Numbered from the stretch's first letter, positions 24,786 through 41,960 are shown. The stretch: 64,000 nt of DNA from Thermoplasmata archaeon (GCA_020348445.1 CP070751.1:420494-484493), one strand, 5' to 3'. The notes: generated from the sequence alone by a model not told the origin. Made by a program: numbers and translations.

Positions 24786-27368
24786 TCAACTCAAAGTAAT
24801 ATCAATCATCACATCCACAGCTCCGCCGTCATCGTCAGTCACAGTCAATTTGAAAGTATAACTTCCAGCTATTGAGTATGTATGGGTTCTTGCATCAGTT
24901 GCTGTGAAAGGGTATGTCCCCCATGGACTTTGTATTGGATCAGGATTCGAACCATCGTTGTAAACAGTGTGAATATCAATCCCTCCAACCCCAAAATCCC
25001 AGGAGAATGTAAGATCGTCAGTACCTTGATCTGATGCTGTTGCTTCGTATGTTATCTCATGATCCACGAAGTATTGATTTGCACCGAAACTCCATTCCCA
25101 GGTCTCAGGGTGCTTGACATTGCAGGTGTGATGCAGACGTTCATCTTTCCCGTCTTCAAAGTCAATGATCACCCAAACTGGAGTTGCTCCGTTCGGCTGG
25201 CCATTAATAGGATCGTCCTTGGGTGTGTATAATACTGTTATTTTTATGTATTGTGTCACATCGCATTTTATGTTATAAATAGTCTCACTCTGGTCGTCTG
25301 GACTTCCTGGATATCTCGTAACTTCTGTATTTCCAATTATTGCATCATTTGCGTAAATGACCATCTCTACGTTGTGCCATTTTTCCCCTGCTGCCCGAAG
25401 TGTGAAGTCGACAAGGATATAGGCCTCTACCTTCTCAATAGTGGGAGCTACATTATCCACAATGACATATGTGATGTATTCTGCAACTGCACCATCATCA
25501 TCAGTCACAGTGAGGGTTACTGAGTAATTACCATTGTCACCATATTCATGGGAAACCGAGTCTGTTGCAATAAATGGGTAGGTTCCTCCAATGGCACTTG
25601 GGTAGGGATCGGGGCTCGCTCCATCATTAAAGAAAATATTTGTTATGGTGGGTCCATATTCAAATTCCCATTTGAAAGTCAGATCATCACTTCCCGGGTC
25701 TGTAGAATCTGTGGTAATATCCACAAGATAGGGTTCGTTTCCGAAGAATGGGCCGAACTTTATGATCGTTGGCGCCACATTGTAGACTGAGACTGTTGTA
25801 TTTTCGGAATCTGTAAAAACACCATCTGTTACCTCCAAAATTACATCTCCGAAATAATTATCGCTCCATGTATAATTTTCAAAAGGACTTGAAGACCAAT
25901 TTGTGTCCCAAATCCCATCGTTATCGAAGTCCCATCTGTACTGCAAGGGATCTCCATCAGGGTCATATGAAAGGGAAGCATCAAAAGATATTGCTGATCC
26001 CTCAAATCCACTATATGGGCCATTTGCATTTGCTACAGGTTGTTTAAAGAGCCAACCGTTTGGATATATAAATGGATAAAAGTCATAATCAGTGGTTGGA
26101 TGCGGTATCAACGTATCACCGATACCATCTCCTGCTATTGCATGTTTACCAGTTCCACTTCCATTATCTACACCAGTATAATTAGACCAATAGTTACCCT
26201 CTAATAATCCAGGGTGGTGCCAAAAATTGGCATATGGATTATAATCCTCGGCTTGAATGGTATTATCAATAATATTGTTGTGATAAATGGTGTTGTTGGA
26301 TGATCTTATAATATAAAAGCCGTAATCGTAATCCGAAACAGTATTTCCTTTAACGATATTGAGATTAGAAGATTGGTAAAGACCTATACCCAGCCAGCAC
26401 GAGTATTTCGAACCTGATAGGATGTTATCTTCGATAATGTTGTATGAAGATCCCCAAAGGTTAAGGGCCCATCGACCATTGGAAGATAAATTGTTGTTTA
26501 TTATTCTGTTGTTTGATGAACTACGAAGGCCGAGTCCATCTATACCACTTGCATCGTTGTTTGTTATGGTATTATTTGAGGAGTGGGAAAGTGAGATACC
26601 GACCTCATTTCTTAAAAAGTTGCTCGTTACATTGTTCCCACTGGAATACGAGAGAACGATACCAAATCCCTTATTTGATATGGCGTTGGTACCTGTGACG
26701 TGATTCCCACGGGAATCATTAAGTAAGATACCAATCCATTCATTCGATGATGCCAAGTTATTGACTATTAGGTTGTTATCTGACGAGTACAGAGATAATC
26801 CATTACCTTGATATGAGCCGTAAATTCCATTGTTTGATAAATTATTATTTGTTATTTTGTTGTTAGAAGATGACCAAAGAAAGATACCATCTGCACCGTT
26901 TCTGAAGACCTTATTACCCTCTATTTTGTTGTTTGAAGAATAGAGTGTGATACCATTAGATCCATTGAATACAGAAAAACCTGTTACATTCACTGAATTT
27001 GCTTTAATGAAGACAACATTCCCAGCTCCACCACCATCTATGATGGTTGTTTCCCTATCCTCACCTTCCATGTTTAGAGCCTTATCTATTTCCACATTTT
27101 CATAATATTTGCCTGCATATACATGCACTGTCCCCCCTCCTGCAACAGCATCCACACCATCTTGAATAATATCAAAATGGTCTACTCCCCAACCTGGAGT
27201 TGACGGATTAAAGTCATCATCAACCCATACTTCTGTGGGTGAACTTGTGGGATTGTTTATTAGGTCCATTCCATCTCCGGAATTTATCGATGCAGCTAAT
27301 GCAAAAACGCTAATCATAATCATTAGACACAACCATATACATAACACCCTTGGTTTCATGTATTTCAT
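24786..27368 (-). CDS. Secreted NosD-type parallel beta-helix protein with PKD domains and an unnamed C-terminal domain
   Basis: Signal peptide, IQDGVD..AGGGTVHVYAGKY.E, Asn-rich SNN repeats, GNYWS and PKD motifs. Confidence 0.88.
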   Translation of the reverse strand: MKYMKPRVLCIWLCLMIMISVFALAASINSGDGMDLINNPTSSPTEVWVDDDFNPSTPGWGVDHFDIIQDGVDAVAGGGTVHVYAGKYYENVEIDKALNMEGEDRETTIIDGGGAGNVVFIKANSVNVTGFSVFNGSNGITLYSSNNKIEGNKVFRNGADGIFLWSSSNNKITNNNLSNNGIYGSYQGNGLSLYSSDNNLIVNNLASSNEWIGILLNDSRGNHVTGTNAISNKGFGIVLSYSSGNNVTSNFLRNEVGISLSHSSNNTITNNDASGIDGLGLRSSSNNRIINNNLSSNGRWALNLWGSSYNIIEDNILSGSKYSCWLGIGLYQSSNLNIVKGNTVSDYDYGFYIIRSSNNTIYHNNIIDNTIQAEDYNPYANFWHHPGLLEGNYWSNYTGVDNGSGTGKHAIAGDGIGDTLIPHPTTDYDFYPFIYPNGWLFKQPVANANGPYSGFEGSAISFDASLSYDPDGDPLQYRWDFDNDGIWDTNWSSSPFENYTWSDNYFGDVILEVTDGVFTDSENTTVSVYNVAPTIIKFGPFFGNEPYLVDITTDSTDPGSDDLTFKWEFEYGPTITNIFFNDGASPDPYPSAIGGTYPFIATDSVSHEYGDNGNYSVTLTVTDDDGAVAEYITYVIVDNVAPTIEKVEAYILVDFTLRAAGEKWHNVEMVIYANDAIIGNTEVTRYPGSPDDQSETIYNIKCDVTQYIKITVLYTPKDDPINGQPNGATPVWVIIDFEDGKDERLHHTCNVKHPETWEWSFGANQYFVDHEITYEATASDQGTDDLTFSWDFGVGGIDIHTVYNDGSNPDPIQSPWGTYPFTATDARTHTYSIAGSYTFKLTVTDDDGGAVDVMIDITLS

Positions 27369-27614: not shown

Positions 27615-28490
27615 TTAAAATATTAGATGGTTTAAGATGCCCGCCTTTTCCTTATTCAGTTTGGTGCAAATGACTTCCTCTCTCCCTCCGATTGCCGAGA
27701 TAATATCCTCCCTCTTCTCAACCTCAGCCAAAATCACAGTTGCCGGCCCTGTCCCAGAAATCCCAGCAGTCACAGCACCAGCCTCAATCGCCTTCTTCGC
27801 AACTTCTGTATCCAATCCCATGGCCTCTCCATAAGCCATGCCGTTCATTCGAATCGCGGATATGTAATCACCTTTCATTGCCAGGTCATGGGCCTCAGCC
27901 AGAGTCCCCCTGATCCTCTTCAGTCTTTGAATATCCACCTCGGATTTCCTGATCTTCATCTTGGGAACATGGATTATAACCTCATAGTCCTCATCAAAGG
28001 GATACTGGTTCAATATCTCCCTTATGATATTATCCGTGACCACCACATTACCAAAATAAGTAGCGCAAGCATCGTCGAAAGCTCCCGTGAGTGTGACCTT
28101 GGCCAAAAGGGAAGCATTGATCCCCATATTGATTACTTCCATATCAGAATATTCCTTTCCAAGAGCCGCAAATGCCGCAAGCACGATGGCATTGGAAGCC
28201 GCACTCGAGCTTTTCAGTCCCCTCGATATAGGGATATCAGAAGTTGTGATTATCCTGGCTCCGTATTCTAATTCCAATTCAAATTTTTTCAGAACCTCCA
28301 AGACACAATGCTTTGCTAGGTCTGTATTTTCGCCTTCGTCCCCCCGAATCTCCACCTCGAAAATACCAGGCTCATTTGTAAGTTCCACTTTCGCCTCGGT
28401 CTTTAGTGCGACTCCAAAGGCCCCACCTTTACCCAAAGCAATGCCGTTTATTATGGTAGCAGCACCGTGACAGTACGCACTAGCTTCCAA
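27615..28490 (-). CDS. aroK: Archaeal (GHMP-family) shikimate kinase
   Basis: GAATIINGIA, PISRGLKSSSAAS, TGAFDDA and GISGTGPA motifs. Confidence 0.95.
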   Translation of the reverse strand: MEASAYCHGAATIINGIALGKGGAFGVALKTEAKVELTNEPGIFEVEIRGDEGENTDLAKHCVLEVLKKFELELEYGARIITTSDIPISRGLKSSSAASNAIVLAAFAALGKEYSDMEVINMGINASLLAKVTLTGAFDDACATYFGNVVVTDNIIREILNQYPFDEDYEVIIHVPKMKIRKSEVDIQRLKRIRGTLAEAHDLAMKGDYISAIRMNGMAYGEAMGLDTEVAKKAIEAGAVTAGISGTGPATVILAEVEKREDIISAIGGREEVICTKLNKEKAGILNHLIF

Positions 28491-28502
28491 TACTTTTCCT
28501 CC

Positions 28503-29363
28503 TTATTTTTCAGTATCCAGTGCATCAAGAACCACTTTTTGCATAACATCGATAGGAGCAGATTCGCAAGTCCACTTCTCAAAGGCCATTACACCCTGAT
28601 AAATGAACATCTCATAACCATATATCACCTTAGCCCCGCTCTTTTGGGCTGCCAAAACAAGTTCAGTATTTTTAGGTGAATAGACCATGTCAAATACGAT
28701 TATGTCCTTTCTCAGTAGCTCTGGTGATATAGGACTGCCTTGAGGACCTCCTTTCATTCCCACAGGCGTGCAGTTTATGATCATGTCAACATCTTCGATT
28801 ATCTCCTCGATATCATCCAAAATGTTCACTTTGATTGTACCTTGGGATTTGAACTTTGTTGCCAATTCCCTTGCCCTTTCAAAGGTTCGGTTCGCAATGA
28901 CTACATCCTTTCCCATCCTGGCCAAAGGCAATGCAATTGCCCTTGCAGCACCCCCGGCACCGAGAATCAATATTGTCATGTGATGCTCAAGATCTATTTT
29001 ATTTCTTCTAATTGCCTCGACTGCAGCAGGTGAATCTGTGTTGTAACCCGTGAGCTTTCCTTCATCATTTACGATGGTGTTCACTGCCCCAAGATCCTCT
29101 GCCAATTCATCCACATCATCCAGATGCTCCATGACCTTGATTTTAAAGGGGAGGGTCACAGAAAGTCCCCGAAAATTCCTTTTCTTAAGGTTTTTCATGG
29201 TATTGGCAAGTTCGCTTTCCTCGATTTCAAAGGAATCGTAAACGTAATCAAGACCTAACTTTTTAAATGCGGCATTATGCATTTTCGGGGAGAGAGTGTG
29301 TTTTAAAGGTTTGCCTATTATTCCGCATATGCGTTTTTTGGAATTACTATCATTGCGTTTCAT
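28503..29363 (-). CDS. aroE: Shikimate dehydrogenase
   Basis: HTLSPKMHN, SVTLPFK, GAVNT, YNTD and GAGGAA motifs. Confidence 0.96.
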   Translation of the reverse strand: MKRNDSNSKKRICGIIGKPLKHTLSPKMHNAAFKKLGLDYVYDSFEIEESELANTMKNLKKRNFRGLSVTLPFKIKVMEHLDDVDELAEDLGAVNTIVNDEGKLTGYNTDSPAAVEAIRRNKIDLEHHMTILILGAGGAARAIALPLARMGKDVVIANRTFERARELATKFKSQGTIKVNILDDIEEIIEDVDMIINCTPVGMKGGPQGSPISPELLRKDIIVFDMVYSPKNTELVLAAQKSGAKVIYGYEMFIYQGVMAFEKWTCESAPIDVMQKVVLDALDTEK

Positions 29364-29393
29364 GTTGTTTCACCTGAGATCTCCCACCTCAAT

Positions 29394-30101
29394 TCATAGG
29401 TTTTCAAGGGCATCCCATAATTCCAAAAGCGTCCTTATATCAACCTGCCCGTCTTCCACCTTCTTCTCGGGGTCCACTGCGGCATATACCATCTCACATC
29501 CAATTAACGGGGCCAAAACCCTTGTAAATTGCCCATAGGACCCCATTCCCATGACAGTGTATTTGTGATTCAAATCCTTGGCTGTTTTTCCACCCTTGGT
29601 CACATTTAGCACATCTTCGAAATTGTTGCTAGTTAAAACCACCTTGGCTATATCCCCTTCAGTTTCCTTGCATTGTTTTATCAGGGCAAAAATCTCGGAC
29701 CATGACGGTGTCTTAAAAAAATCATGATAGGAGATAATGGTTTTTATTTCCTCTTTTTTGGCCAAGGCAATCAACGGATCCCTCAAATTCCCCTCCATTT
29801 TCAATTCCAAATCAATGTAATCAAAGCCTGTCGTTATCGCCTCTTCAAGCAAAGCTGTCCTTTTCTCCTCATCCTCCTTGTAATCGCCGCCATCCCAATA
29901 GGGGCGGATCGTTAAAATTAGGGGCAAGCCAGTGTCCTTCTTTATTTCAGATAATCGGTTCAATATAGAAGAAGAAATTGGCTCTTTTAACTTATCCAGT
30001 CTCAGCTCAATTAGATTTGCACCAAGGGATTTGCATAAATCAGCTTGTGAGACTAAATCAGTTACGCTTTGTTCAGCCAATGAAACACATACCAAAGTCA
30101 T
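29394..30101 (-). CDS. aroD: Type I 3-dehydroquinate dehydratase
   Basis: IELRLD, ILTIR..WDGG, ISYHDF and IAKVV motifs. Start moved to ATG 30101. Confidence 0.93.
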   Translation of the reverse strand: MTLVCVSLAEQSVTDLVSQADLCKSLGANLIELRLDKLKEPISSSILNRLSEIKKDTGLPLILTIRPYWDGGDYKEDEEKRTALLEEAITTGFDYIDLELKMEGNLRDPLIALAKKEEIKTIISYHDFFKTPSWSEIFALIKQCKETEGDIAKVVLTSNNFEDVLNVTKGGKTAKDLNHKYTVMGMGSYGQFTRVLAPLIGCEMVYAAVDPEKKVEDGQVDIRTLLELWDALENL

Positions 30102-30114
30102 GCTCTCACGTTTT

Positions 30115-31155
30115 TTATTTCTCTTGGATGCTCTCATCCACCTTCGTCCCGAAATGCCTTCCCTTATCATCCATCCATACAAGTACAGAGTCGCCTTCAT
30201 TCAGATCCACTATGGAAACAGGCTTTTCTTGGGAAATCAATCGTATAGTCTCGGCATTCTGGAGTATTATATTGAACGTTCTGCCTTCATATTCAGCTTC
30301 CAGGAAAACCATGGGCCTTTTCTCGATCTTCACCCTTCCGAGAATCACAGGCCTTGTGCTTCCCTGGCTGTCAATGACAAGGACCTCGTCCCCGGACTTT
30401 AAATCGGACAGGTACTTTGTCTTTTCATTGGGGGCTAGAATATAAGAGTGAACAGGTCCAGCATTGACCCTAAAGGGCCTTGTGTCCGCAAACTCTGATT
30501 CAACAGATTCTGAGTGGACCAGGAACATGCCATTGGACTGCGAGCCTATTAGCATACCCTCGCCAACGTTCAACATAGAACACGTATCAATGCAGACCCT
30601 GTCCCCCATTCCCAGGGGTTTTAACTTGGTAATCCTGGCAGATACAAGGGAAAGGGAGCCTTTTTCAAATTCATCCATAAATCTCCGAAGGTTGTTTATC
30701 CTATTAAAATCCACGGTAGATAAAACAACACCATCCACTCCAACCTCCAAAGTCTCGAAAAACAATTTTGCATCCTCTACATTATTCACCTTAACAAGGA
30801 GTTTGGATTTCGAATTTTGAAATGCGGCAATAAGGTTTTCAACTGGTATAACCTTCCAGTTTTCGGCAGAAACAAGAACATAATCCATCTTCCCTTCCAG
30901 GGCTTTGGCCCTCTCCTCATCGGTTTTATCTTGGATCTCGATGTGTTCCCCCTGTCCATCATCCATCTTGATTTTCCCCTCTGAAAGAGAAATCAAATTG
31001 AACTTTCCCAGTTTTTGGAATATCTCCTGATCCTCCTCTCTCACAATTATATCTGTGAAATTGTTTATCAGTGCAGTTATGGCTATTTTCTTTCTAATTT
31101 CCTGCTTTTTGTGAACGTCCGAGTCTATCCATATGATTTTTTTCAACGTTTTCAC
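30115..31155 (-). CDS. aroB': 3-dehydroquinate synthase II (archaeal, oxidative deaminating)
   Basis: GDRVCIDTCS, RPFRVNAG, GRVKIEKRP, LQNAET and RHFG motifs. Confidence 0.95.
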   Translation of the reverse strand: MKTLKKIIWIDSDVHKKQEIRKKIAITALINNFTDIIVREEDQEIFQKLGKFNLISLSEGKIKMDDGQGEHIEIQDKTDEERAKALEGKMDYVLVSAENWKVIPVENLIAAFQNSKSKLLVKVNNVEDAKLFFETLEVGVDGVVLSTVDFNRINNLRRFMDEFEKGSLSLVSARITKLKPLGMGDRVCIDTCSMLNVGEGMLIGSQSNGMFLVHSESVESEFADTRPFRVNAGPVHSYILAPNEKTKYLSDLKSGDEVLVIDSQGSTRPVILGRVKIEKRPMVFLEAEYEGRTFNIILQNAETIRLISQEKPVSIVDLNEGDSVLVWMDDKGRHFGTKVDESIQEK

Positions 31156-31952
31156 CCTGTGATTTCCTTGTATGCATCATCAACTTCGGCGTCCTGGCAG
31201 ATGATTTTCACCAATGCCCGGGTCATTCCAATTATATTGTCATGCTGAAATATGTTCCTGCCAATGGAGATACCAGCGGCCCCTGCCTTGATTGCGTCGT
31301 GTACCATGGTAAGCACATCCATGTCAGAGTCGGTCTTGGGTCCCCCGGCAATGATAACAGGAACAGGGCATCCTGAGATGACCTCCTTGAAGGTATCAAT
31401 ACTTCCCGTGTAATTTGTCTTAATCACATCAGCACCCAACTCAGCACCAAGTCTGGCCACATGTTTTACCAACTCAACATCAAAAGGGTTCTTTACCCCG
31501 GGCCCTCTCGGATACATCATTGCCAAAAGGGGAATCTGCCATCTATTGCACTGACCAGATATGAATCCCAGATCCTGCAGCATCTCAGGTTCTGTCTCTG
31601 CTCCCACATTCACGTGAATTGAAACAGTATCTGCACCCATTAATAGAGCCTCCTCCACCTCAGCAACCAATACCTTGGCATTTGGATCAGGGCTCATTTT
31701 AGTACTTGCAGAAAGATGAAGTATGAATCCAATATCAACTTGGGCTTTTTCAAGTCCAAATAAAGCATTGCCTTTATGAAGAACCACGGCAGTTGCACCC
31801 CCTTCTGCCACCTTTTTTATGGTATCCTCCATATCAACGATACCCTTTATAGGGCCTGAAGATACACCGTGATCCATTGGTACTATCACAAATCGTCCTG
31901 TTTTTTTGTCCTGAATCCTTCGCAGACGGATATTCTTTCCAAGGTCTGTCAT
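31152..31952 (-). CDS. aroA': 2-amino-3,7-dideoxy-D-threo-hept-6-ulosonate (ADH) synthase
   Basis: DhnA-type class I aldolase (PMDHG, MMYPRG, GADVIKTNY, GRNIFQ), directly upstream of DHQ synthase II. Confidence 0.92.
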   Translation of the reverse strand: MTDLGKNIRLRRIQDKKTGRFVIVPMDHGVSSGPIKGIVDMEDTIKKVAEGGATAVVLHKGNALFGLEKAQVDIGFILHLSASTKMSPDPNAKVLVAEVEEALLMGADTVSIHVNVGAETEPEMLQDLGFISGQCNRWQIPLLAMMYPRGPGVKNPFDVELVKHVARLGAELGADVIKTNYTGSIDTFKEVISGCPVPVIIAGGPKTDSDMDVLTMVHDAIKAGAAGISIGRNIFQHDNIIGMTRALVKIICQDAEVDDAYKEITG

Positions 31953-31983
31953 ATTCTATCACCAACCTTCCTGCTAAATAAAT

Positions 31984-32919
31984 TCACAGCACTCCCGCAA
32001 TAAACGAAAGTGTCAAAACAATGGTGAACGTCAAAATATAACCCTTGTGCAATTTTCTTGCCTTCGCTTTTGTATATCTTTTATATATGGAGCGGCAGAG
32101 ATTGAAGCATATGAAGTTCCATACAAACACAACTGTTAAAATGAGTATTTGTAGTATGATATGGGTTTGATAGACAGAAAAATAGGGGATGGCCCAGATA
32201 ACCAAACCGGGAAAAGAGAACGCAAAAGAAGTGGCAGCGGCAGCCTTGGGCCCGAAACGAACAGGTGTTGTATTTTTTCCACCTGCTTTGTCATTTTCAA
32301 GGTCCCTTAAATCCTTTGCCAGGGTTTCGGCAATGGCCATAAAGAGCATCAAGGCTATAAGGAAGTACAGCCCGTTAAATACGTTAACAAGAGCTATGTT
32401 CTCATACCGTATAAGATATGCAGCTATCGCAAAATAATAAAGCAGTCCAAATCCCACCCAGAACAGCTGGGAGATTATGGGGCGGCCGTCCATCTTAAGT
32501 GGCTTCATGGCATATTGATAGGACAGTAATATCAACAAGAAGGCAGAAAGGAATATCAAGATATCGAGGTAGAATGCCAAAATCAATCCAATAGAATACA
32601 ATATGATGGCTTGATTCCTGGCAGCTTTCTTTGAAACAACACCAGTGCACAAGGGCCTTTTCTTTCTCGATGCCTCTGAACTTCTGCAATCTGAATTAAA
32701 GTCCCCAAGGTCGTTCATGGTACAGGCTCCTGCATCTGCAATCACGGCAGTCATAATAAATAGTATAAAATGGGGATTTGGAGCATGTTGGGCAATGATG
32801 GCATAAAAACCCATTGAAGCAAAAACATCGAGCCATACAAGTTGCTGCGGCCTAGTTAAAATGAAATGGCCCTTTAGCTTCTGGCCCAATGTGAACTTCT
32901 TTTTTTCCAATTTCTTCAC
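31984..32919 (-). CDS. UbiA-superfamily prenyltransferase
   Basis: Multi-TM protein with Asp-rich motifs NDLGDFNSD and KDLRDLEND..G..T.PV, plus KRPL.TG. Confidence 0.9.
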   Translation of the reverse strand: MKKLEKKKFTLGQKLKGHFILTRPQQLVWLDVFASMGFYAIIAQHAPNPHFILFIMTAVIADAGACTMNDLGDFNSDCRSSEASRKKRPLCTGVVSKKAARNQAIILYSIGLILAFYLDILIFLSAFLLILLSYQYAMKPLKMDGRPIISQLFWVGFGLLYYFAIAAYLIRYENIALVNVFNGLYFLIALMLFMAIAETLAKDLRDLENDKAGGKNTTPVRFGPKAAAATSFAFSFPGLVIWAIPYFSVYQTHIILQILILTVVFVWNFICFNLCRSIYKRYTKAKARKLHKGYILTFTIVLTLSFIAGVL

Positions 32920-34238
32920 GCGCCTTCAACTACCTCGGATTTACCAGATACCGCATCAACAACCCTGGAAAGGGGTTTTCCCGGTCGAATCTCGCTGTAA
33001 TTGTACAAACTCCCGGGAGGAACCAGCATAACCTCCACGTTCTCCTTTAACACAGATTCGAAGTTGGATTTGATCTCGTTCTTCAGATTTGGATATTGAT
33101 CCCTGTCCCTGTGCTCGGCAATTATCTGCGTGCGGCCTTTCATTACCTTGATCTTGTACCAGACACCGTTTAATTTTGATTTGTAAAGCATCTCCTCCAG
33201 CTCAATTGGGAAGAACTTCTTTTTACCAATTGATAACTCAGTGCGCTTTCGTCCCAGGATCTTCATTGTGGGAAGGGGAAGACCGCAGGGACACTGGTCC
33301 TTTTCTATGATAATCACATCCCCTGTTTCGTACCTGAGAATGGGCATGGCCTCCCGCCATGTTGGGGTGACAACTGACTTTGCCCTCTCCCCAGGCGCAG
33401 CCTCAGTGCCGTCATCATGATATATCTCAGTGAACATGACAAAGGACGGCAGGTGCAGCACGTTATTTTCGCAGGGTATCGCCGCTCCGATTTCGTTTTG
33501 TCCAAGAAGTGATAGGAATTTTGCACCGTACAGATCGCCAAGAACCTTTCCCCTGGAATTTGCACAGGGCTCTGCCCCTGAGACAATCAATTTGATGCCT
33601 ATGCTTTTTGGATCAACACCCTGGTCCATGAGAATGTTGGCATAGGAGAAGGCATCAGTTGCTGCGGCACCCAAAATCGTGGGTCTGAGCCTCTTCAGGG
33701 CATCAGCCACCTCAAGGGGAGGGTACATGTTGTTTCGTGTACCCATGGGAATTATGGTAACCCCTGCTTTCTGATTTATGAGATCGGCAGAACGTCCTGC
33801 AAGGGTTCGGGTGTAGGGATAACATAATGCAACCCTATCCTCGGGGGACATTAACTTCTGAAACACAGGAAGGCATATTGCTAGGTCAATGGACCTCTCA
33901 AGCTCGTCTTTGGTAACCCAGATGGGAACATGTCCTCCTGTTGTACCTGAGGTCTGGGAGTAAATCAGGCATTTTTGCCCTGGCGTAACTGCCAGCATAT
34001 CAGTGGGGTCAATTTCCACAAGTTCGGATCTTTTAGTAAGGGGAACCTTTTCCTTGAAATCTTTGATGCTCTTGATATCCCTTCCCTTAACGCCAGCAAC
34101 TGTCAATTTCCTGGAATAGAATTTACTTTTATAGGCGTAGTCCACGGCCTTTTTTAGACGTTTTAAGACCGAGCTCTCCTTATCTGCCATCTTGATTATA
34201 CCAGGAAACTTCTGCAACATCTTTGCCTTAAAACCCAT
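32916..34238 (-). CDS. Phenylacetate-CoA ligase (PaaK)/F390-synthetase family adenylating enzyme
   Basis: SQTSGTTG P-loop, GAEP, PILRYETGD and ILGRK motifs. Confidence 0.88.
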   Translation of the reverse strand: MGFKAKMLQKFPGIIKMADKESSVLKRLKKAVDYAYKSKFYSRKLTVAGVKGRDIKSIKDFKEKVPLTKRSELVEIDPTDMLAVTPGQKCLIYSQTSGTTGGHVPIWVTKDELERSIDLAICLPVFQKLMSPEDRVALCYPYTRTLAGRSADLINQKAGVTIIPMGTRNNMYPPLEVADALKRLRPTILGAAATDAFSYANILMDQGVDPKSIGIKLIVSGAEPCANSRGKVLGDLYGAKFLSLLGQNEIGAAIPCENNVLHLPSFVMFTEIYHDDGTEAAPGERAKSVVTPTWREAMPILRYETGDVIIIEKDQCPCGLPLPTMKILGRKRTELSIGKKKFFPIELEEMLYKSKLNGVWYKIKVMKGRTQIIAEHRDRDQYPNLKNEIKSNFESVLKENVEVMLVPPGSLYNYSEIRPGKPLSRVVDAVSGKSEVVEGA

Positions 34239-34248
34239 AACATACCTC

Positions 34249-35325
34249 CTATGCTCTCCTATTCATAAAATCGTACCGCAATCGATCTTTACGGGGAATT
34301 ATTGAATCCTGGGGAACGTACCCTGACAACATCAGATGATCTGCGCAAACAATTGCAGATACTGCCTCTGCCACAACAAGAACCCTGGGTGTATAGTTCG
34401 CATCGAACCTGCCCTCAGTTGCCATTTTCGTGTTCTTCATGGTCCTTAAATCCACGCTCTTTTGGGCTATTAAAATCGATGGTGTGGGCTTCACCGCAAA
34501 CCTGAACACCACAGGTGGTCCATAGGTGATTCCCCCGAGAACCCCACCAGCGCGGTTTGAGCTTGTGGTGACAGAGCCTCCTTGTGTTACAATGGGATCA
34601 TTGAATTCCGAAGCTCTCATGCGTGCAGAATCTAGCCCGTCTCCCAACTCGAAGGTCTTTATTCCAGGTATATTCAGTATGGCGTGCCCCAAATCGGCCT
34701 GGAATCTGTTGAATGCCGGAGCGCCCAGGCCCGAGGGAAGATTTTGAATCTGAATCTCAATTATCCCCCCTGTTGTGTCGCTGTCCCTCTTGGATTGCTC
34801 AGCCAACTTTTCAATGATTTGTTCTAAATTGTTATTATCCACCTTTACTCCGCCAAGCTCAAGCATAGTGCTTTTTATTGCTATCTTCTTGAGAAGACAA
34901 ATTCTCTTGGCAACTGCACCAGCTGCAATAGTCGATACCCAGGTCCTTCCGCTGGCCCTGGATCCCCCTCTCCAGTCGATATGACCGTACTTCATCCTGT
35001 ACGTCAAATCGGCATGCCCTGGCCTTGGAGTGTGCATTATCTTTTTGTACTTTTCGCTCTCCACGTTCGAGTTCCTGACTATAATTGAAATCGGAGTTCC
35101 GATGGTGTAGCCCTCGAAGACACCGCTTAAAATCTGGAAGTTGTTCTCCTCGACACGTCTTGTCAGAAGGGGATAAGGGACATCTCTGTCAAGCTCACTT
35201 TTTATATGCTGGCGAGAAAGTCTTATTCCTGCTGGGCATCCGTCGATTACACAGCCAATTGCATCTCCGTGGGATTCTCCCCAGGTTGTGACCCTGAAGA
35301 TGTTTCCCAAAGTGTTTCCTGCCAA
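34249..35325 (-). CDS. aroC: Chorismate synthase homolog (divergent)
   Basis: MAGNTLG..FRVTTWGESHG, RPGHAD, SNRAGGVLGGI and KPTPS motifs. Several signature residues are changed (see findings). Confidence 0.85.
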   Translation of the reverse strand: MAGNTLGNIFRVTTWGESHGDAIGCVIDGCPAGIRLSRQHIKSELDRDVPYPLLTRRVEENNFQILSGVFEGYTIGTPISIIVRNSNVESEKYKKIMHTPRPGHADLTYRMKYGHIDWRGGSRASGRTWVSTIAAGAVAKRICLLKKIAIKSTMLELGGVKVDNNNLEQIIEKLAEQSKRDSDTTGGIIEIQIQNLPSGLGAPAFNRFQADLGHAILNIPGIKTFELGDGLDSARMRASEFNDPIVTQGGSVTTSSNRAGGVLGGITYGPPVVFRFAVKPTPSILIAQKSVDLRTMKNTKMATEGRFDANYTPRVLVVAEAVSAIVCADHLMLSGYVPQDSIIPRKDRLRYDFMNRRA

Positions 35326-35344: not shown

Positions 35345-36289
35345 CTACTGGACGAAAACCAATTTTCTTTTGGATGAGGGGTCGTCAGCCAGTTCGCGAA
35401 CAAAAAACTTGCCTTTTGAGCTCAATTCAAATAACATAACAAATAATATGGGAAATATCGAGGCTAAAAAGAATCCTGTGGAAAACTGCCATGCAGTGTA
35501 TATGGAATCAAAAAGTGCCAATGTCATTAGGATCAATATAAAAGGAATATAGGCGACAACTCCAATCAATACTTTTAATTCAATGCCATTTGTGGGATTT
35601 TTCTTGGCTCGAATCATATTGACTATTGTGATTCCTGATATGGCCCCAAATCCCAGAAGAAAACCTCCGAGGATTATCATCACCTGATGTTCAAAATCAT
35701 ACGGAAACTGATAGACATAACTGTTGAGCATCTGAATGGATATTACCCCGAACAATATTGGTAAAATGCTCCCTTTGATCATTCGGGTTCTGTATCTGTA
35801 ATTCGAGAACCGCTCTTTCTGTTTGTCAAAGAGACTTTCCTCTTGGGCTTCGGTTCCAGTCAGCTCATCGAGATCTGACAGATAATCCTCCATTTCCTGC
35901 TCCTCGGTTTGTGTAAGTACCCCTTCTGCCACCTCGGCTTCAGCTTCTTCATAGGGCTCCTTGATCTCTTCGGCAACCTCTGTCCCCTCAGGTGCAGCAG
36001 CTCCTTCCTCCTCTGTAATTTCCAAATAGAAGTTGCATGTATAGCAGTAGTATCTGTTATATTGCTGTATATATGCGGCCTTTTGATTGCATTTGGGGCA
36101 TAAATATTCGGCTGTTTCTTTTATTTCAGGTTCTGGTTGTGCTTCCCTTTCCTCCTCTTTTTCCCCAGGCTCTTTTGACGTCACATACTTGTTGCAGGAG
36201 AAGCAGTAGTATCTGTTGTTTTCCTTGATAAAAGTGGCCCTTCTGTCACAAGAGGGACATTTAATCTGAACATCTTCTTCCAAAGACAT
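35345..36289 (-). CDS. Membrane protein with two N-terminal Zn ribbons and an acidic linker
   Basis: CPSC...YYCFSC and CPKC...YYCYTC motifs, Glu-rich stretch and about 4 TM helices. Ends 20 bp before aroC. Confidence 0.8.
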   Translation of the reverse strand: MSLEEDVQIKCPSCDRRATFIKENNRYYCFSCNKYVTSKEPGEKEEEREAQPEPEIKETAEYLCPKCNQKAAYIQQYNRYYCYTCNFYLEITEEEGAAAPEGTEVAEEIKEPYEEAEAEVAEGVLTQTEEQEMEDYLSDLDELTGTEAQEESLFDKQKERFSNYRYRTRMIKGSILPILFGVISIQMLNSYVYQFPYDFEHQVMIILGGFLLGFGAISGITIVNMIRAKKNPTNGIELKVLIGVVAYIPFILILMTLALFDSIYTAWQFSTGFFLASIFPILFVMLFELSSKGKFFVRELADDPSSKRKLVFVQ

Positions 36290-36451: not shown

Positions 36452-38338
36452 TCAAAAAACCTCTACAAGGGACCTTCTTCCCACTGGAATCATAAGAAGG
36501 TCAGCTGCGATTATAAGGCCAGATACCGCAACAATTAGAGTGGGTATCTCAGGCAAGCCCCGCTTTGTGGGGGGTGTAAGTCCTGGAATCAGATCAATTC
36601 CCTGGGGCAGATATCTCTGATCTCTGTTGTAATTGATAAACACCATAACAGGGTGTTTTGATTTGACCTTCACTGTAGAGCCCAAGGTTATGTTCTCCCA
36701 GTCCAAATGGATCTCCTCGCTGTCCCCATCATCAACTGCTATTCGGGGAGTGGAATCCAGGGCATAATAGTTGTGGGGGTCCCTCGTGGTCCATTCAGGG
36801 GGCTGTTTGAACTGGGTATCTTCGATCATCATGTCCATGTAGTAGTAGCTGCTTTCCGAGAAATCAAAGGTGACAGACTCATGGACGTCCATTTTGGCAG
36901 AGTACGGTTTGATAAGCATATCGAAGTCCACTTCTACATCATTGTTCCCCTCTCTGAGGTTCACGACAGTGAGATATGCCTGGCTCCAGATTGGAATCTC
37001 GAATTCTGTTGATGCAGGATAGGGCACCCAGCCGTGAGGATAGAATTCAGTGATTTTTTTGTAGACAGTGAAGTATTCTTCCCCAGACATGCTTCTCCTA
37101 TTATCTTCCCTCAAATACCATGTACTGTTGGCGAATGTGTAGACCAGTATGGGATCGCTTGACCTTAGATGCGCCCATTCATATGAGGAATATTCCCGTA
37201 ATTTGTAGGCAACCTTGAAATCGAACAGTCTGAGCTCACCCGGATTTAAATATCCTTTGAACGTGCCTTGATTGCCGTTTTTGTCCTTTAAATCGATTGT
37301 TGCCCCAGTGGGAGCCGAAATAAGTATTTTACCGAAACAAGGGAATAGAAAGTCTTTTCCGTCTTTTCCAAAAACCTGGACAAATCCCTGATCCGACTGT
37401 ATGCCCGCAACTATGGACACAGGTTTGTCGGCACTGATTAGAACCAGGTCATCGTCGAATCCGTACTGCTCAAATATGGGATTACGGGTATAATCCCAGC
37501 CTTCGAACCTGTCAAGGATGAGAGTGGCATCGTCGTTTTTGTCAGAATAATCCCATACATTGACAGTTGTATCTGCCTCCAGGGCTGAAATCCAGCAATC
37601 TCCCGTAATTCTGGTAAATATCTTTTTTCCGTAGGCAGAGTAAATGCCCTCCCATCCATCCCAGTAGTAATCCACGATATAATCATAGCCTCTGTCATCC
37701 ATGGTTCCCATTGGAAATAATTTATGGTGCATTACTGAGATGGGATAGTTGCTTGTAACCTTGACAATCCCGGAGATCATTCGAAAGCCCTGGCCAACCA
37801 TCCAAGTGTTTATCTGAATCTGTCTTGTTTCGTACTCTCCCAAATGAATGGTCTTTGTGAGATTTTCAGGTTTTTGAATCTGATCCAACCAAACTATTTC
37901 TGCGCCATCACCCAGTACCCATTTTCCACATACCCCCAAATCACAATCGAATATTGTATCATTTATTGCGGTGCCGTTGAGCCATTCAATACGGATTTTT
38001 GCACCGTTCTCATAGGAAAAAAATTGAATGTTGCTGAAATTTGCCATGGGGTAGCTTCTATAGGTTGTATCTTCATATCCTGCCCACCATGTATATATTC
38101 GATCCTGCATCAAGACAGTGGGGGGTGGAACATAGAATATAAAGTAATCGTTCACAAATGTTGTAATGTCCGAGGAGTGATAGTCAGTATGTTCTACTTG
38201 CTCAGATGTCACCCTCATAAAATCGGAAACTGCGGTGTCCATGGATTGTCTGTGTAAAAAGATATCGCTCATGGGCAGGAAGATAAGACCCACAATACAT
38301 ATTATCAATAATATGGGTTTTATAGCTCTAAGGAACAT
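36452..38338 (-). CDS. Membrane-anchored surface protein with IgGFc-binding-like beta repeats
   Basis: N-terminal signal/TM, recurrent (I/V)xSxxP(I/V)xV motifs and a C-terminal TM. Confidence 0.7.
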   Translation of the reverse strand: MFLRAIKPILLIICIVGLIFLPMSDIFLHRQSMDTAVSDFMRVTSEQVEHTDYHSSDITTFVNDYFIFYVPPPTVLMQDRIYTWWAGYEDTTYRSYPMANFSNIQFFSYENGAKIRIEWLNGTAINDTIFDCDLGVCGKWVLGDGAEIVWLDQIQKPENLTKTIHLGEYETRQIQINTWMVGQGFRMISGIVKVTSNYPISVMHHKLFPMGTMDDRGYDYIVDYYWDGWEGIYSAYGKKIFTRITGDCWISALEADTTVNVWDYSDKNDDATLILDRFEGWDYTRNPIFEQYGFDDDLVLISADKPVSIVAGIQSDQGFVQVFGKDGKDFLFPCFGKILISAPTGATIDLKDKNGNQGTFKGYLNPGELRLFDFKVAYKLREYSSYEWAHLRSSDPILVYTFANSTWYLREDNRRSMSGEEYFTVYKKITEFYPHGWVPYPASTEFEIPIWSQAYLTVVNLREGNNDVEVDFDMLIKPYSAKMDVHESVTFDFSESSYYYMDMMIEDTQFKQPPEWTTRDPHNYYALDSTPRIAVDDGDSEEIHLDWENITLGSTVKVKSKHPVMVFINYNRDQRYLPQGIDLIPGLTPPTKRGLPEIPTLIVAVSGLIIAADLLMIPVGRRSLVEVF

Positions 38339-38366: not shown

Positions 38367-40847
38367 TTACTTACTAAGGGTTTTTAGGAACTTCCCCTTT
38401 CCAGTGAAGGAGAGGGTTCCAACTATTCCTTTTCCTCCAGCAGCTACGGTTCCAATATCAGTTGCCATAAGTACAGCCAGAACCGGCGGCAGTAGCCAGA
38501 AAGGATCTCCTGTCGTGGTTCTCTGGGTCGTGGGTATTATGCTCAATGGGATGTCCATGTCCTGGGGCTCACACGAGTAATCCCTTGCATATCTCACCAT
38601 GAGCATCACATCCTTATCGGCATGAATATGCATCATCTGGATCACGGATTCAAGCTCGTCCTGATTATCAGGCTCAACATCGTCCCTTTCATCACCATTG
38701 TAGTCCTCGTTATCATCCACAACGATTCTGTAGATTTCGTATGCATCAAGGGTGGCACCGGATGGTTGATTGTCAAGCCACGTTCCGTCCCAGCCGACTG
38801 AGGTATCATCCTCCAAGGCTATGATATACACGATGCATTGATGGTGGATCGCCAGATCCCATTTTTGCTCTGCCGGGTAGAAGTCGAATCCCTCTTTGAA
38901 GGTGGATATCTGTGTTTCGTCGAAAGCGTTGTCATCATTTGCCATCCAGAGCTCCACGCGAATTGGCCAATCCGAGATGATTCTGACCCATTTTACCTCG
39001 GCAATGTAATTGTTGGAGAAGGGGCCTGAGCACATGGATGATATTGTCACCTGCTCCCCAGGTTCAACTGTAAACTCATCATCGCCCTCGGAGGTATCGT
39101 CGAAATCAAGCTCGACATGCGCCTCCTTTTCAAGTCCTGTTATTGTAATTGCAGCCGACATTGGTACATAGTATCTTGAGCCAAGGAATCCGTAGACCTG
39201 TGTGTGAAAATTGTTGTCCCATATTCCGCCGTATATGGTAACAGGTTTTTCAGCCTTCACAACCACCCAATCGGCCTCGAAATTTCCAGAATCCACAGCC
39301 CTTTTTATGTAATCGCTTTCCATAATTTCTTTGGCGGCTTGAGGATCCTCCCAATCAACATCCCAGTCAGGCTGATAACCAAAATATTGATAGTTGTTAT
39401 CCAGTTCATTGTTGTCTCCTGCATCATCACCACCACACATCGTGTCCACGACAAAAGTGCTTGCCCACTGGAAATTCTCCCAATCATTTAACGTGATTTC
39501 TCGGGAGTCATCACCATCTGATTTATCTATTATTGTTATGTGGTTATCATCGTCGTAACTTGCTATCATGAGGTCACGGTGCACAAAACCAAAGAACTCG
39601 TCACCGTAAAAGGACCATATCGCATCGTCGGATAGGCCATTTGCAAACCATTCTGTGTTCACACCGTGGGCCACCTCATCGTCTCCATCGACCTCGTCGT
39701 TCGGGTCGCAGTCGTCTGCAAGATCGGGTATCCCATTGTCGTTCTTGTCGATGTACCCGTCAGTTACCGTCATCTTCTGAACAGTGACGCGTCCTGAAGA
39801 TTCAACCTTGATGACCCCGTCCCACATCCACCAGTCCCGAGTAGTGTAGTTAAGGATTCCCTGGTATTTATTAAGGGTTCCGGTCCACAGGATATGGTTT
39901 TCAACATACTCCAGATCAGGTGAGTTCAGGGGTCTTCTTGCAGGGTCGTACAAGTCTATTCTCCATTTTGAACGATCAAGGGTACGCCATTCACGGTCAG
40001 CGCGGTCGTTTTCATCGTCGTTGTCATCCTCCCAACAATCCTCGTCAATCCAATTATAAAATGGTTCTGGATCGTCATCAGGGTAACTGTTTGGATTGTT
40101 GGGATTTGTACCCTCATACAGCTCCTGCCCGTCACAGTAGCCGTCCCCATCAGAGTCAACTGAGTCACCGTCATTATCATCTTCTATTCCGCCAGTATCC
40201 TCATCAATTAATCCATCGTCATCATTATCACGGCCATCAGCACGATCCTCATTATTACTCCCGTCGTCATCATCATCACGGGGATCTTCATTTACTCGAC
40301 CATCCCTATCCCTATCTGGATTACCATCACCCCGATATATTCCACCCCACCAGCCGTGGATGGTATTTGCCGGGTACTCGTCTTTGAAGGCCTGGGTAAA
40401 TATGTGGCCCTTTAGCATTGTGACAGTGATACGATTGTTGTTATCGTAACTACCTATGGCAATTGCACCTTCATCAGAAATCCAGGAATCTCCATAAAAT
40501 GTGATTCCGCACCTCTCTTCGTCATTGGTCTGCCCGTTGTTGTCATCTTGATTATGACCATTGTAAATTCCCCATGGACAATTCTGTTCGTTGTCTTCCT
40601 GTTCATATATTGCATCAATGGGACTCCAGTAGAATATGAATTCCTTGTTTACAAAGGGGGTGTAGGCACTTGTTTTCACATCCTGGGTGATCTCCTCGAT
40701 TATTCCTTTATCATGTGTGACCACATGTGTCGAGGGTAAAAGCAGTGTTCCGAACAGCATCAGCATTATTGCCAAGACTGTAAAATAACCCAGTATTATT
40801 TCTTTAGCCTTCGGTCTATTATTTGCATTGGATTTTGCCGATTTCAT
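38367..40847 (-). CDS. Paralogous membrane-anchored surface protein with an Asp-rich Ca-binding (TSP3-like) insertion
   Basis: Same architecture as the neighbouring gene, plus DNDDDGLIDED and DSDGDGYCDGQE..GTNP motifs. Confidence 0.72.
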   Translation of the reverse strand: MKSAKSNANNRPKAKEIILGYFTVLAIMLMLFGTLLLPSTHVVTHDKGIIEEITQDVKTSAYTPFVNKEFIFYWSPIDAIYEQEDNEQNCPWGIYNGHNQDDNNGQTNDEERCGITFYGDSWISDEGAIAIGSYDNNNRITVTMLKGHIFTQAFKDEYPANTIHGWWGGIYRGDGNPDRDRDGRVNEDPRDDDDDGSNNEDRADGRDNDDDGLIDEDTGGIEDDNDGDSVDSDGDGYCDGQELYEGTNPNNPNSYPDDDPEPFYNWIDEDCWEDDNDDENDRADREWRTLDRSKWRIDLYDPARRPLNSPDLEYVENHILWTGTLNKYQGILNYTTRDWWMWDGVIKVESSGRVTVQKMTVTDGYIDKNDNGIPDLADDCDPNDEVDGDDEVAHGVNTEWFANGLSDDAIWSFYGDEFFGFVHRDLMIASYDDDNHITIIDKSDGDDSREITLNDWENFQWASTFVVDTMCGGDDAGDNNELDNNYQYFGYQPDWDVDWEDPQAAKEIMESDYIKRAVDSGNFEADWVVVKAEKPVTIYGGIWDNNFHTQVYGFLGSRYYVPMSAAITITGLEKEAHVELDFDDTSEGDDEFTVEPGEQVTISSMCSGPFSNNYIAEVKWVRIISDWPIRVELWMANDDNAFDETQISTFKEGFDFYPAEQKWDLAIHHQCIVYIIALEDDTSVGWDGTWLDNQPSGATLDAYEIYRIVVDDNEDYNGDERDDVEPDNQDELESVIQMMHIHADKDVMLMVRYARDYSCEPQDMDIPLSIIPTTQRTTTGDPFWLLPPVLAVLMATDIGTVAAGGKGIVGTLSFTGKGKFLKTLSK

Positions 40848-41057: not shown

Positions 41058-41960
41058 TCAGGTCTCCTTTTTACCTGTAATTGTATAGCCAAAGACCGTG
41101 CTCACCGACAGTGCGTTGGACTTGCATTCCCTTGCGCAGCGGCCGCATTTGACACAATCCAGCTTGCTTTTTAAATCGTCCTCTGTGGGATCCAGGCCCA
41201 TGGGGCAGACTTTTTTACACCTCTCGCATTGGGTGCACCATTTGAAATCGTACCTTCGCTTTATGGATGAGAACGGATTCAAAAGCGAGAAAACGGCTCC
41301 CAGTGGACAGAAGTACCTGCACCATGCTCGGCCGTGTGTGAAATAGCTGAACGTGAAGTAAAATGCGAACAAGGCCAGATGATATATGAGCCAAAAGGCG
41401 CTGACGGTCTGCCAGGTCAGCCAGTACGGCACCACCCCCAACAAAGCTCCGAAACACAGGTACCTGCACCAGAAAATGGAGGCTGTGAGGACGGCCAATA
41501 TAACGACACCTACGAGGTAGATGTACTTCCACAATCTCAACCAATCAGGTGGTCTATATTTATGGGTACAAACCTTGTTGCAGGTGTCAAGGATAAGACC
41601 AAAGGGACACAGCCAACCGCAGATCGCCCTGCCCAATGCAGTGCCAAAACCAAGTACAACTCCAAATACATAAAAAGGCAACCGGAAGTTAATAACATAC
41701 TGCTGCAGCATACCCACAGGACAGCCCAGCCACGCGAGCTCGCAGGCCTGGCAGTTGAGTGTGCACGTGATTCCACTCGTTCTCGGAATTGGTGCATGCC
41801 ACCCACCGGGTAGCTTCCTGAAGATACCGAGTCTGTGAAATCCAAAACTAAGTACCTGGCTTACCAAACGGAACTTCGGGCCTCCCAGTAGTATGACAAT
41901 CATCATAACCACTATGATTATGATCATACTTCCAAGGATTAACGGAAATTCTCCTGCCAT
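41058..41960 (-). CDS. Membrane 4Fe-4S binding protein (NapH/CcoG-like polyferredoxin)
   Basis: CGWLCPFG and WCRYFCPLG motifs, and two CxxCxxCxxxC ferredoxin motifs. Confidence 0.9.
   Translation of the reverse strand: MAGEFPLILGSMIIIIVVMMIVILLGGPKFRLVSQVLSFGFHRLGIFRKLPGGWHAPIPRTSGITCTLNCQACELAWLGCPVGMLQQYVINFRLPFYVFGVVLGFGTALGRAICGWLCPFGLILDTCNKVCTHKYRPPDWLRLWKYIYLVGVVILAVLTASIFWCRYLCFGALLGVVPYWLTWQTVSAFWLIYHLALFAFYFTFSYFTHGRAWCRYFCPLGAVFSLLNPFSSIKRRYDFKWCTQCERCKKVCPMGLDPTEDDLKSKLDCVKCGRCARECKSNALSVSTVFGYTITGKKET

Follow-up and report, generated by a model that had tools for sequence, protein, structure and literature searches.

An archaeal shikimate operon with a chorismate synthase paralogue, an adenylate-forming ligase, and a UbiA prenyltransferase and no EPSP synthase

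Organization of the operon

The genome under study is a metagenome-assembled genome (MAG) of an uncultured Thermoplasmata archaeon from sediment (GCA_020348445.1; here G000) of 5.16 Mb, with 41.5% GC and a completeness of 81.7%, in which 354 contigs are joined by 100-N spacers. The window analyzed is a stretch of 64,000 nucleotides from this genome (CP070751.1:420494-484493), and positions given without a prefix are counted from its first letter. Between positions 27615 and 35325, eight genes on the minus strand form a shikimate operon that contains no gene for 5-enolpyruvylshikimate-3-phosphate (EPSP) synthase and that includes a paralogue of chorismate synthase (here called AroC2), a PaaK-type adenylate-forming ligase, and a prenyltransferase of the UbiA superfamily. 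We propose that these three proteins probably open a way out of the shikimate pathway that does not pass through chorismate.

In the direction of transcription, the run begins with aroC2 (34249 to 35325; PF01264, 361 bits; TIGR00033, 338 bits against a cutoff of 212), followed by the gene for the PaaK/F390-synthetase-like ligase (32916 to 34238; best NCBIfam matches of 117 to 120 bits, far under the equivalog cutoffs) and the ubiA gene (31984 to 32919; PF01040, 96.6 bits, cutoff 34.2). It continues with the genes for AroA', a 2-amino-3,7-dideoxy-D-threo-hept-6-ulosonate (ADH) synthase (31152 to 31952; TIGR01949, 358 bits, cutoff 299); AroB', a 3-dehydroquinate synthase II (30115 to 31155; PF01959, 427 bits; NF002627, 383 bits, cutoff 392); AroD, a type I 3-dehydroquinate dehydratase (29394 to 30101; TIGR01093, 173 bits, cutoff 139); AroE, a shikimate dehydrogenase (28503 to 29363; TIGR00507, 285 bits, cutoff 200); and AroK, a shikimate kinase of the archaeal GHMP type (27615 to 28490; TIGR01920, 246 bits, cutoff 127). 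The open reading frame listed for aroD extends to 30200; judged from start codon analysis, translation probably begins at the ATG at 30101, which lies 14 nt beyond the stop codon of aroB'. All five of these pathway enzymes score at or near their NCBIfam equivalog cutoffs, and by homology they are shown to make shikimate-3-phosphate (S3P), fed by aspartate kinase and the product of asd.

A preliminary description of the window had reported these eight genes as a tightly packed run, and the open reading frame listing, Pfam, and NCBIfam bear out every gene, its coordinates, and its identity; the junctions between them are overlaps of 4 nt or gaps of 10 to 31 nt. The edge that it gave the operon did not hold, since a conserved minus-strand block runs on upstream as far as asd, at 45074. 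An Rfam scan of the window returned no RNA family.

EPSP synthase and chorismate-consuming enzymes

Profile searches yielded no candidate for EPSP synthase (PF00275) in G000, and tblastn searches of this genome with six Thermoplasmatota EPSP synthases gave no match with an E value below 0.2. Hidden sequence that might conceal aroA was ruled out, as every N in the assembly belongs to a 100-nt contig spacer. The preliminary description had noted the absence of EPSP synthase from the operon; none was found elsewhere in G000 either, nor in three members of its genus in which the operon is or could be present. Across 17 ligase-bearing genomes (14 Thermoplasmatota and 3 Asgard), PF00275 was not found in 15, chromosome-level MAGs included, and it was missing from all three of the Asgard genomes, which belong to the Hermod-, Hod-, and Heimdallarchaeota (the last being chromosome level). 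A phylum-wide scan added 11 further ligase-bearing Thermoplasmatota, every one with aroC directly beside the ligase gene and 9 without PF00275. Among 30 relatives, on the other hand, all 10 genomes with a canonical aroC also had aroA, mostly adjacent to it, and aroC occurred without aroA in three genomes of the genus of G000 and in one other, G005. Because the absence recurs across ligase-bearing genomes while the relatives with canonical aroC all have aroA, MAG incompleteness alone cannot explain the missing EPSP synthase.

Of the 17 ligase-bearing genomes, only G325 and G214 have aroA, and each of these has two aroC genes. The copy next to aroA scores higher as a chorismate synthase (447 and 386 bits, respectively) than the ligase-linked copy (343 and 357 bits). 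Chorismate mutase (CM_2) was found in 2 of the 17 ligase-bearing genomes, which are exactly these two, and its gene directly adjoins the canonical aroC and aroA. The upstream genes of G325 are single copy and common to the two clusters, with aroD and aroE standing by the canonical pair and aroA', aroB', and aroK by the ligase cluster. Since both genomes hold both sets and chorismate mutase accompanies only the canonical pair, aroA, aroC, and the mutase gene appear to be the chorismate module, and AroC2, the ligase, and UbiA appear to serve something else.

Searches for other enzymes that act on chorismate or on its products gave a similar picture. MqnA was found in none of the 17 ligase-bearing genomes; chorismate-binding enzymes of the TrpE/PabB/MenF type were found in 1 of the 13 ligase-bearing genomes tested (G001, from the same genus as G000); indole-3-glycerol-phosphate synthase (IGPS) and prephenate dehydrogenase (PDH) were found in none of the five best genomes, which are 89 to 93% complete; and prephenate dehydratase (PDT) was found in none of five genomes. 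Given that the chorismate-consuming enzymes are missing, the pathway does not seem to serve aromatic amino acids, which agrees with what the preliminary description had supposed.

AroC2

The AroC2 protein scores above the chorismate synthase equivalog cutoff not only in TIGR00033 but also in NF003793 (355 bits, cutoff 321), and it is ~45% identical to the Pseudomonas enzyme. A comparison of 13 ligase-linked with 12 canonical Thermoplasmatota sequences, in the numbering of the window protein, revealed an invariant set of differences (F15W, R48D, D61N, D87N, G122S, T129W, H307F, P309A, and I311Y/F), together with a 2-amino-acid deletion that removes the loop arginine following position 48. These changes include a gain of aromatic residues. 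Position 48 lies in the RR(R/K)PG substrate loop, where the 13 AroC2 sequences have aspartate and all 12 canonical relatives have arginine. When 1.84 billion representative proteins were searched for AroC homologs, both R48 and D61 were present in 137 of the nearest 150. The ligase-linked AroC of Hod- and Hermodarchaeota has glycine at position 48 and N61.

The catalytic motifs GESHG, PGHAD, and R-F-D, including both histidines and the aspartate, are invariant in all 13 AroC2 sequences, and alignment mapping indicates that AroC2 keeps the arginines corresponding to R103, R129, R354, and R362 of the Paracoccidioides enzyme (PbCS). The 3-phosphate is bound in PbCS by R129 and R354, and the two carboxylates are bound by R46, R103, and R362 (PMC11633415). 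We infer that the AroC2 pocket would still accommodate a phosphorylated ring acid and that it has become less positively charged, as expected if the enolpyruvyl carboxylate were absent from its substrate.

In the phylogeny, AroC2 formed a clade of its own with an SH-like support of 0.999 and no canonical members. The clade comprises sequences with D/K48 and N61 plus a single one with F48 and D61 (P0198); in Hod- and Hermodarchaeota, the AroC linked to the ligase is not part of it. Our literature search found no report of S3P turnover by a chorismate synthase and no open text that names the arginine of structure 1QXO that binds the enolpyruvyl carboxylate. A predicted-complex run with AroC2 and the ligase returned a score of 0.00, which speaks neither for nor against binding.

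The ligase and the prenyltransferase

The ligase belongs to a sharply bounded family, in which ~98 clusters score between 990 and 342 bits; below them, scores fall at once to 128 bits, the level of ordinary PaaK. It lies far under the PaaK equivalog cutoffs (NF041878, 117 bits against 700; TIGR02155, 100 bits against 646). The motifs of the adenylate-forming (ANL) enzymes, namely, T96, S97, and G98 of the TSGTT loop; T305 and D307 of the TGD motif; and the C-terminal catalytic A10 lysine K421, are invariant over 13 orthologs, and judged by them the ligase is adenylation competent. Among solved structures, it comes closest to PaaK-type ligases and to AjiA1 and NatL2, which activate acids of the benzoate type, and it is related to enzymes that activate hydroxy- and aminobenzoates. 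The most distant ortholog (42% identity), in a member of the Promethearchaeota (L033:9023-11338), is paired with a gene of the NAD synthase family (PP-loop ATPase) in place of aroC.

The UbiA protein has an Asp-rich motif, NDLGDFNSD, at residue 68 and about eight hydrophobic or transmembrane (TM) segments, and its subfamily is as sharply bounded in score as that of the ligase. All NCBIfam UbiA equivalogs lie far under their cutoffs (TIGR01474, 29 bits against 275; MenA models, 20 to 33 bits). The models of digeranylgeranylglyceryl phosphate synthase (DGGGPS) gave 65 and 59 bits (cutoffs 296 and 353), and of the proteins with a solved structure, a DGGGPS is the closest to it in sequence (36 bits). 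A role as the housekeeping DGGGPS was considered and rejected, as another gene of G000 (L002:1423-2259) scores 245 bits where the operon gene scores 65. The UbiA family is unusually expanded in G000, with a total of 18 matches. Three of the UbiA-family genes lie outside the window around a gene for a B12-binding radical SAM protein (G000:C1:1208000-1212800; L086:3182-7949), and one of them is 42% identical to the UbiA of the operon.

Conservation and distribution of the gene cluster

The aroC and ligase genes are adjacent, in either order, in all of the ~20 loci in which they were found. The AroC-ligase-UbiA triad recurs in at least five families of Thermoplasmatota, and the three genes occur in another order in Hodarchaeota and Hermodarchaeota. 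The typical order in Thermoplasmatota is NapH-like protein, two surface proteins, a Zn-ribbon/4-TM protein, aroC2, ligase, and ubiA, followed by (aroA', aroB', aroD, and aroE) and aroK, with the aspartate kinase gene and asd close by. In Hod- and Hermodarchaeota, the order is aroB'-aroD-aroA'-ubiA followed by ligase-aroC, and the other strand carries aroK and aroE. At the Hodarchaeota locus, a gene for an IS605 OrfB/TnpB (Cas12f-like) protein lies between ubiA and the ligase gene (L066:6325-7488, minus strand).

Related cassettes were also detected in unrelated contigs. AroC2-like, NapH-like, and PaaK-like genes stand together in L078 (64% GC) and L081 (22% GC), and L079 has the AroC2-like and PaaK-like genes only. 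The cassette in L081 (L081:8001-11453, on a contig of GCA_003940745.1) differs in codon usage from its surroundings. The neighboring genes have 4.9% in-frame TGA and almost no GGN codons, and the host seems to read TGA as glycine, whereas the three genes of the cassette (AroC2-like, Fer4_5, and PaaK-like) have 0 TGA in 1,155 codons and 8% GGN. Because TGA is absent from the cassette and frequent in the genes beside it, the cassette looks recently transferred from an organism with the standard code. Judged by gene content, the core of the system is AroC2 and the ligase, often with the NapH-like protein, and UbiA is an archaeal addition. The ligase system is rare, being present in 12 of 401 sampled Thermoplasmatota and 2 of 151 sampled Asgard genomes, and a pattern scan of 185,579 species genomes recovered 16 loci.

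Neighboring genes

The block upstream of aroC2 in the window is entirely on the minus strand. A Zn-ribbon/4-TM membrane protein (35345 to 36289; PF14369 and a TM scan) is encoded 19 nt upstream of aroC2; it has two N-terminal Zn ribbons, an acidic linker, and a C-terminal domain of four TM segments, and this last domain is kept directly upstream of aroC2 in 11 loci. The Protein Atlas gave no usable functional lead for this protein. In L080:2673-4111, a gene of the AroC2 clade is preceded by that of a 94-amino-acid double treble-clef zinc finger protein, echoing the arrangement in the window. Elsewhere in the genome, at G000:C1:361233-362018, five tandem Zn-ribbon units resemble the N terminus of the Zn-ribbon membrane protein.

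Two surface proteins follow, of 628 amino acids (36452 to 38338; no Pfam match) and 826 amino acids (38367 to 40847; TSP3 repeat). They are paralogs, acidic, anchored by TM segments at both the N and the C terminus, and syntenic across the Thermoplasmatota clusters. The 628-amino-acid protein has an IgGFc-binding/DUF5719-like beta fold, and its structural neighbors in the Atlas (TM scores of 0.5 to 0.54) are generic beta-sandwich folds of surface proteins. The possibility that the pair are multiheme or other redox proteins was rejected, as both are acidic proteins of the cell surface in which no CxxCH motif occurs.

The NapH-like membrane Fe-S protein (41058 to 41960; PF12801 [Fer4_5], 46.6 bits) has two CX3CP motifs (CGWLCP and CRYFCP), two C-terminal 4Fe-4S motifs of the form CxxCxxC(x)3C, and, as predicted from its sequence, about four TM helices. 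It is 60 to 86% identical across all Thermoplasmatota clusters, and in L078 and L081 its homologs lie between the AroC2-like gene and the ligase gene. Asgard genomes contained only weak homologs, none of them near the cluster. Farther upstream are the genes for an aspartate kinase with ACT domains (42505 to 43875; PF00696, 154 bits), whose position is syntenic in L036, L041, L042, and L047, and for aspartate-semialdehyde dehydrogenase (asd, 43953 to 45074; PF01118 and PF02774), which would supply a substrate of AroA' and which adjoins the cluster in other lineages too. Just downstream of the operon lies a gene for an 860-amino-acid NosD/beta-helix/PKD surface protein (24786 to 27368, minus strand) with at least nine paralogs elsewhere in the genome at 42 to 52% identity.

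A possible chorismate-independent exit from the shikimate pathway

We consider it probable, though some way from certain, that the operon represents a chorismate-independent exit from S3P to a prenylated membrane ring compound. In this proposal, AroC2, which has kept the flavin machinery and the phosphate-binding arginines, would remove the 3-phosphate to give a dihydroxy-cyclohexadiene carboxylate, and this product could aromatize to a hydroxybenzoate. The PaaK-type ligase would adenylate the ring carboxylate to form a coenzyme A (CoA) thioester or another conjugate, and UbiA would attach an isoprenoid chain, yielding a membrane-bound prenylated ring compound that may be a redox carrier or an unusual lipid. 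The flavin of AroC2 would probably receive electrons from the NapH-like Fe-S protein, which might either keep it reduced or make the step net reductive. The AroC2, ligase, and UbiA steps may also follow one another in a different order. More tentatively, with a chance that we place a little short of even, we suggest that the AroC2 reaction is new to the chorismate synthase family: a flavin-dependent removal of the 3-phosphate from S3P or from its ligase-activated form, possibly net reductive through the NapH-like protein, on a chorismate-independent branch that would end in a previously unknown prenylated electron carrier or ring lipid in anaerobic Thermoplasmatota and Asgard archaea. The preliminary description had raised the idea of a shortcut that skips EPSP, had proposed that the triad be sought in other archaea, and had named a grouping of UbiA with DGGGP synthases as a sign to the contrary. 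The idea is supported by the absence of EPSP synthase, by the distinctness of AroC2, by the recurrence of the triad, and by a UbiA that remains at 65 bits against the DGGGPS cutoff of 296.

Several observations weigh against this proposal. The substrate assigned to AroC2, S3P or a carboxyl-activated derivative, follows only from what is missing, namely, EPSP synthase. All of the genomes are MAGs with estimated completeness of 72 to 94%, three of them chromosome level. G001 has an orphan pair of TrpE/PabB-like and TrpG-like genes (L031:7923-10009), which normally require chorismate; the pair is flanked by the genes of an alpha/beta hydrolase and of an XPB helicase, has no further trp genes around it, and belongs to a genome without EPSP synthase. 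The lost AroC2 arginines are presumed, partly on the basis of structure 1QXO, to be those that neutralize the enolpyruvyl carboxylate of EPSP. UbiA is not beside the ligase in a Promethearchaeota contig (where aroC and the ligase gene are adjacent), in G214, or in the nonarchaeal cassettes. Finally, the nearest relatives of UbiA are O-prenylating enzymes like DGGGPS and ChlG rather than 4-hydroxybenzoate prenyltransferases, and for this reason the prenyl acceptor may not be an aromatic carbon and could be a hydroxyl or a carboxylate.

This last point fits a net-reductive, alicyclic variant, in which the ligase would first make the CoA thioester of shikimate or S3P, AroC2 with electrons from the NapH-like protein would reductively remove the phosphate to give a dihydroxy-cyclohexenyl-CoA, and UbiA would O-prenylate a ring hydroxyl in the manner of DGGGPS, producing a nonaromatic ring lipid. 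The linkage of the NapH-like protein to AroC2 and the ligase in distant lineages and the constant pairing of AroC2 with the ligase speak for it as well. There is also a biochemical precedent, as cyclohexanecarboxyl-CoA derives from shikimate via CoA thioesters in the ansatrienin and omega-cyclohexyl fatty acid pathways. Nevertheless, we regard this variant as unlikely. The NapH-like homologs of the Asgard genomes are weak and distant from the cluster, and an electron donor does not prove net reduction, since canonical chorismate synthase depends on reduced flavin although its reaction involves no net redox change. It is quite unlikely, in our judgment, that EPSP synthase has undergone nonorthologous displacement by an unrecognized enzyme, which could be the ligase, the Zn-ribbon membrane protein, or the product of some other gene. 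AroC2 would then make chorismate in the normal way, and an acid derived from chorismate, such as 4-hydroxybenzoate, would serve as the substrate of the ligase and UbiA. The AroC2 scores and retained catalytic residues would be accounted for in this way, and so would the G001 pair and the PabB-PabA-PabC set that G005 carries without a detectable aroA. However, CM, MqnA, IGPS, PDH, and PDT were not found in the AroC2-only genomes searched; G325 and G214 keep a canonical aroA-aroC-CM set beside AroC2 and the ligase, which argues that the modules are not redundant; and an invariant arginine has become aspartate in AroC2. Moreover, ANL enzymes are not known to be able to form an enol ether, which counts against a displacement.

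The most conventional explanation is that of an ordinary aromatic amino acid operon in incomplete MAGs, with aroA and the downstream genes left unassembled and with the ligase (for example, an arylacetate-CoA ligase for amino acid salvage) and UbiA (a lipid prenyltransferase) as unrelated passengers. G000 is indeed only 81.7% complete, and PaaK-type ligases can serve aryl acid salvage in archaea, as in the indolepyruvate oxidoreductase route of Methanococcus. We find this explanation very improbable, as the same genes are missing from 15 genomes, among them chromosome-level MAGs and four that are 90 to 93% complete. Moreover, aroA adjoins aroC in relatives and other genes fill that place here, and AroC2, the ligase, and UbiA are distinct subfamilies that are distributed together.

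The persistence of a complete, self-supplied shikimate pathway in organisms that appear unable to use chorismate bears on a textbook scheme. It is taught that the shikimate pathway branches only at chorismate and that it cannot do without EPSP synthase, the target of glyphosate. If a chorismate-independent exit from S3P exists as proposed, the pathway would gain a second exit, and a flavoenzyme family that has been studied in depth would gain a new reaction. It would also point to a new membrane compound in archaea of sediments, a group that includes relatives of the eukaryotic ancestor and about whose electron carriers and lipids little is known. The automated annotation of "chorismate synthase" in these genomes would then wrongly imply prototrophy for aromatic amino acids.

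Comparison with known systems

The literature search found no paper describing a system of AroC, ligase, and UbiA. The archaeal shikimate pathway of the Methanocaldococcus/Methanococcus type has in common with the operon the AroA'/AroB' entry, AroD, AroE, and a GHMP kinase, and asd and aspartate kinase near the operon would supply the aspartate semialdehyde. That pathway ends in EPSP synthase and chorismate synthase, whereas the operon occurs without EPSP synthase or chorismate consumers and has a divergent AroC with an embedded ligase, UbiA, and NapH-like protein. The route to the ubiquinone head group, in which UbiC converts chorismate to 4-hydroxybenzoate for prenylation by UbiA, likewise joins a shikimate-derived ring acid to an enzyme of the UbiA superfamily. 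The operon system differs from it in that it would proceed without chorismate, UbiC, or MqnA, has a UbiA that is not an ortholog of the 4-hydroxybenzoate enzyme, and adds a carboxylate ligase.

Chorismatases (FkbO/Hyg5) and the cyclohexanecarboxyl-CoA pathways also give 3,4-dihydroxycyclohexadiene carboxylate, hydroxybenzoates, or alicyclic CoA esters, the kinds of product considered here. Chorismate or shikimate is the starting point of these routes, their enzymes are unrelated to those of the operon, and none of them involves an AroC paralogue, a NapH-like protein, or UbiA. PaaK, AjiA1, NatL2, and BagE/FevW belong to the same two-domain adenylate-forming family as the operon ligase and share its ANL motifs, and several of them activate hydroxy- or aminobenzoates arising from the same aldolase and 3-dehydroquinate synthase II chemistry. 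In contrast to these enzymes, the operon ligase, with ~30% identity to them at most, forms a subfamily of its own and is always adjacent to AroC2. Canonical AroC (EC 4.2.3.5; PF01264; structures 1QXO, 5Z9A, and 1UM0) and AroC2 are of the same fold family and share the catalytic His/His/Asp and the phosphate-binding arginines, but AroC2 constitutes a separate clade that occurs without EPSP synthase and that, in two genomes, exists side by side with the canonical enzyme.

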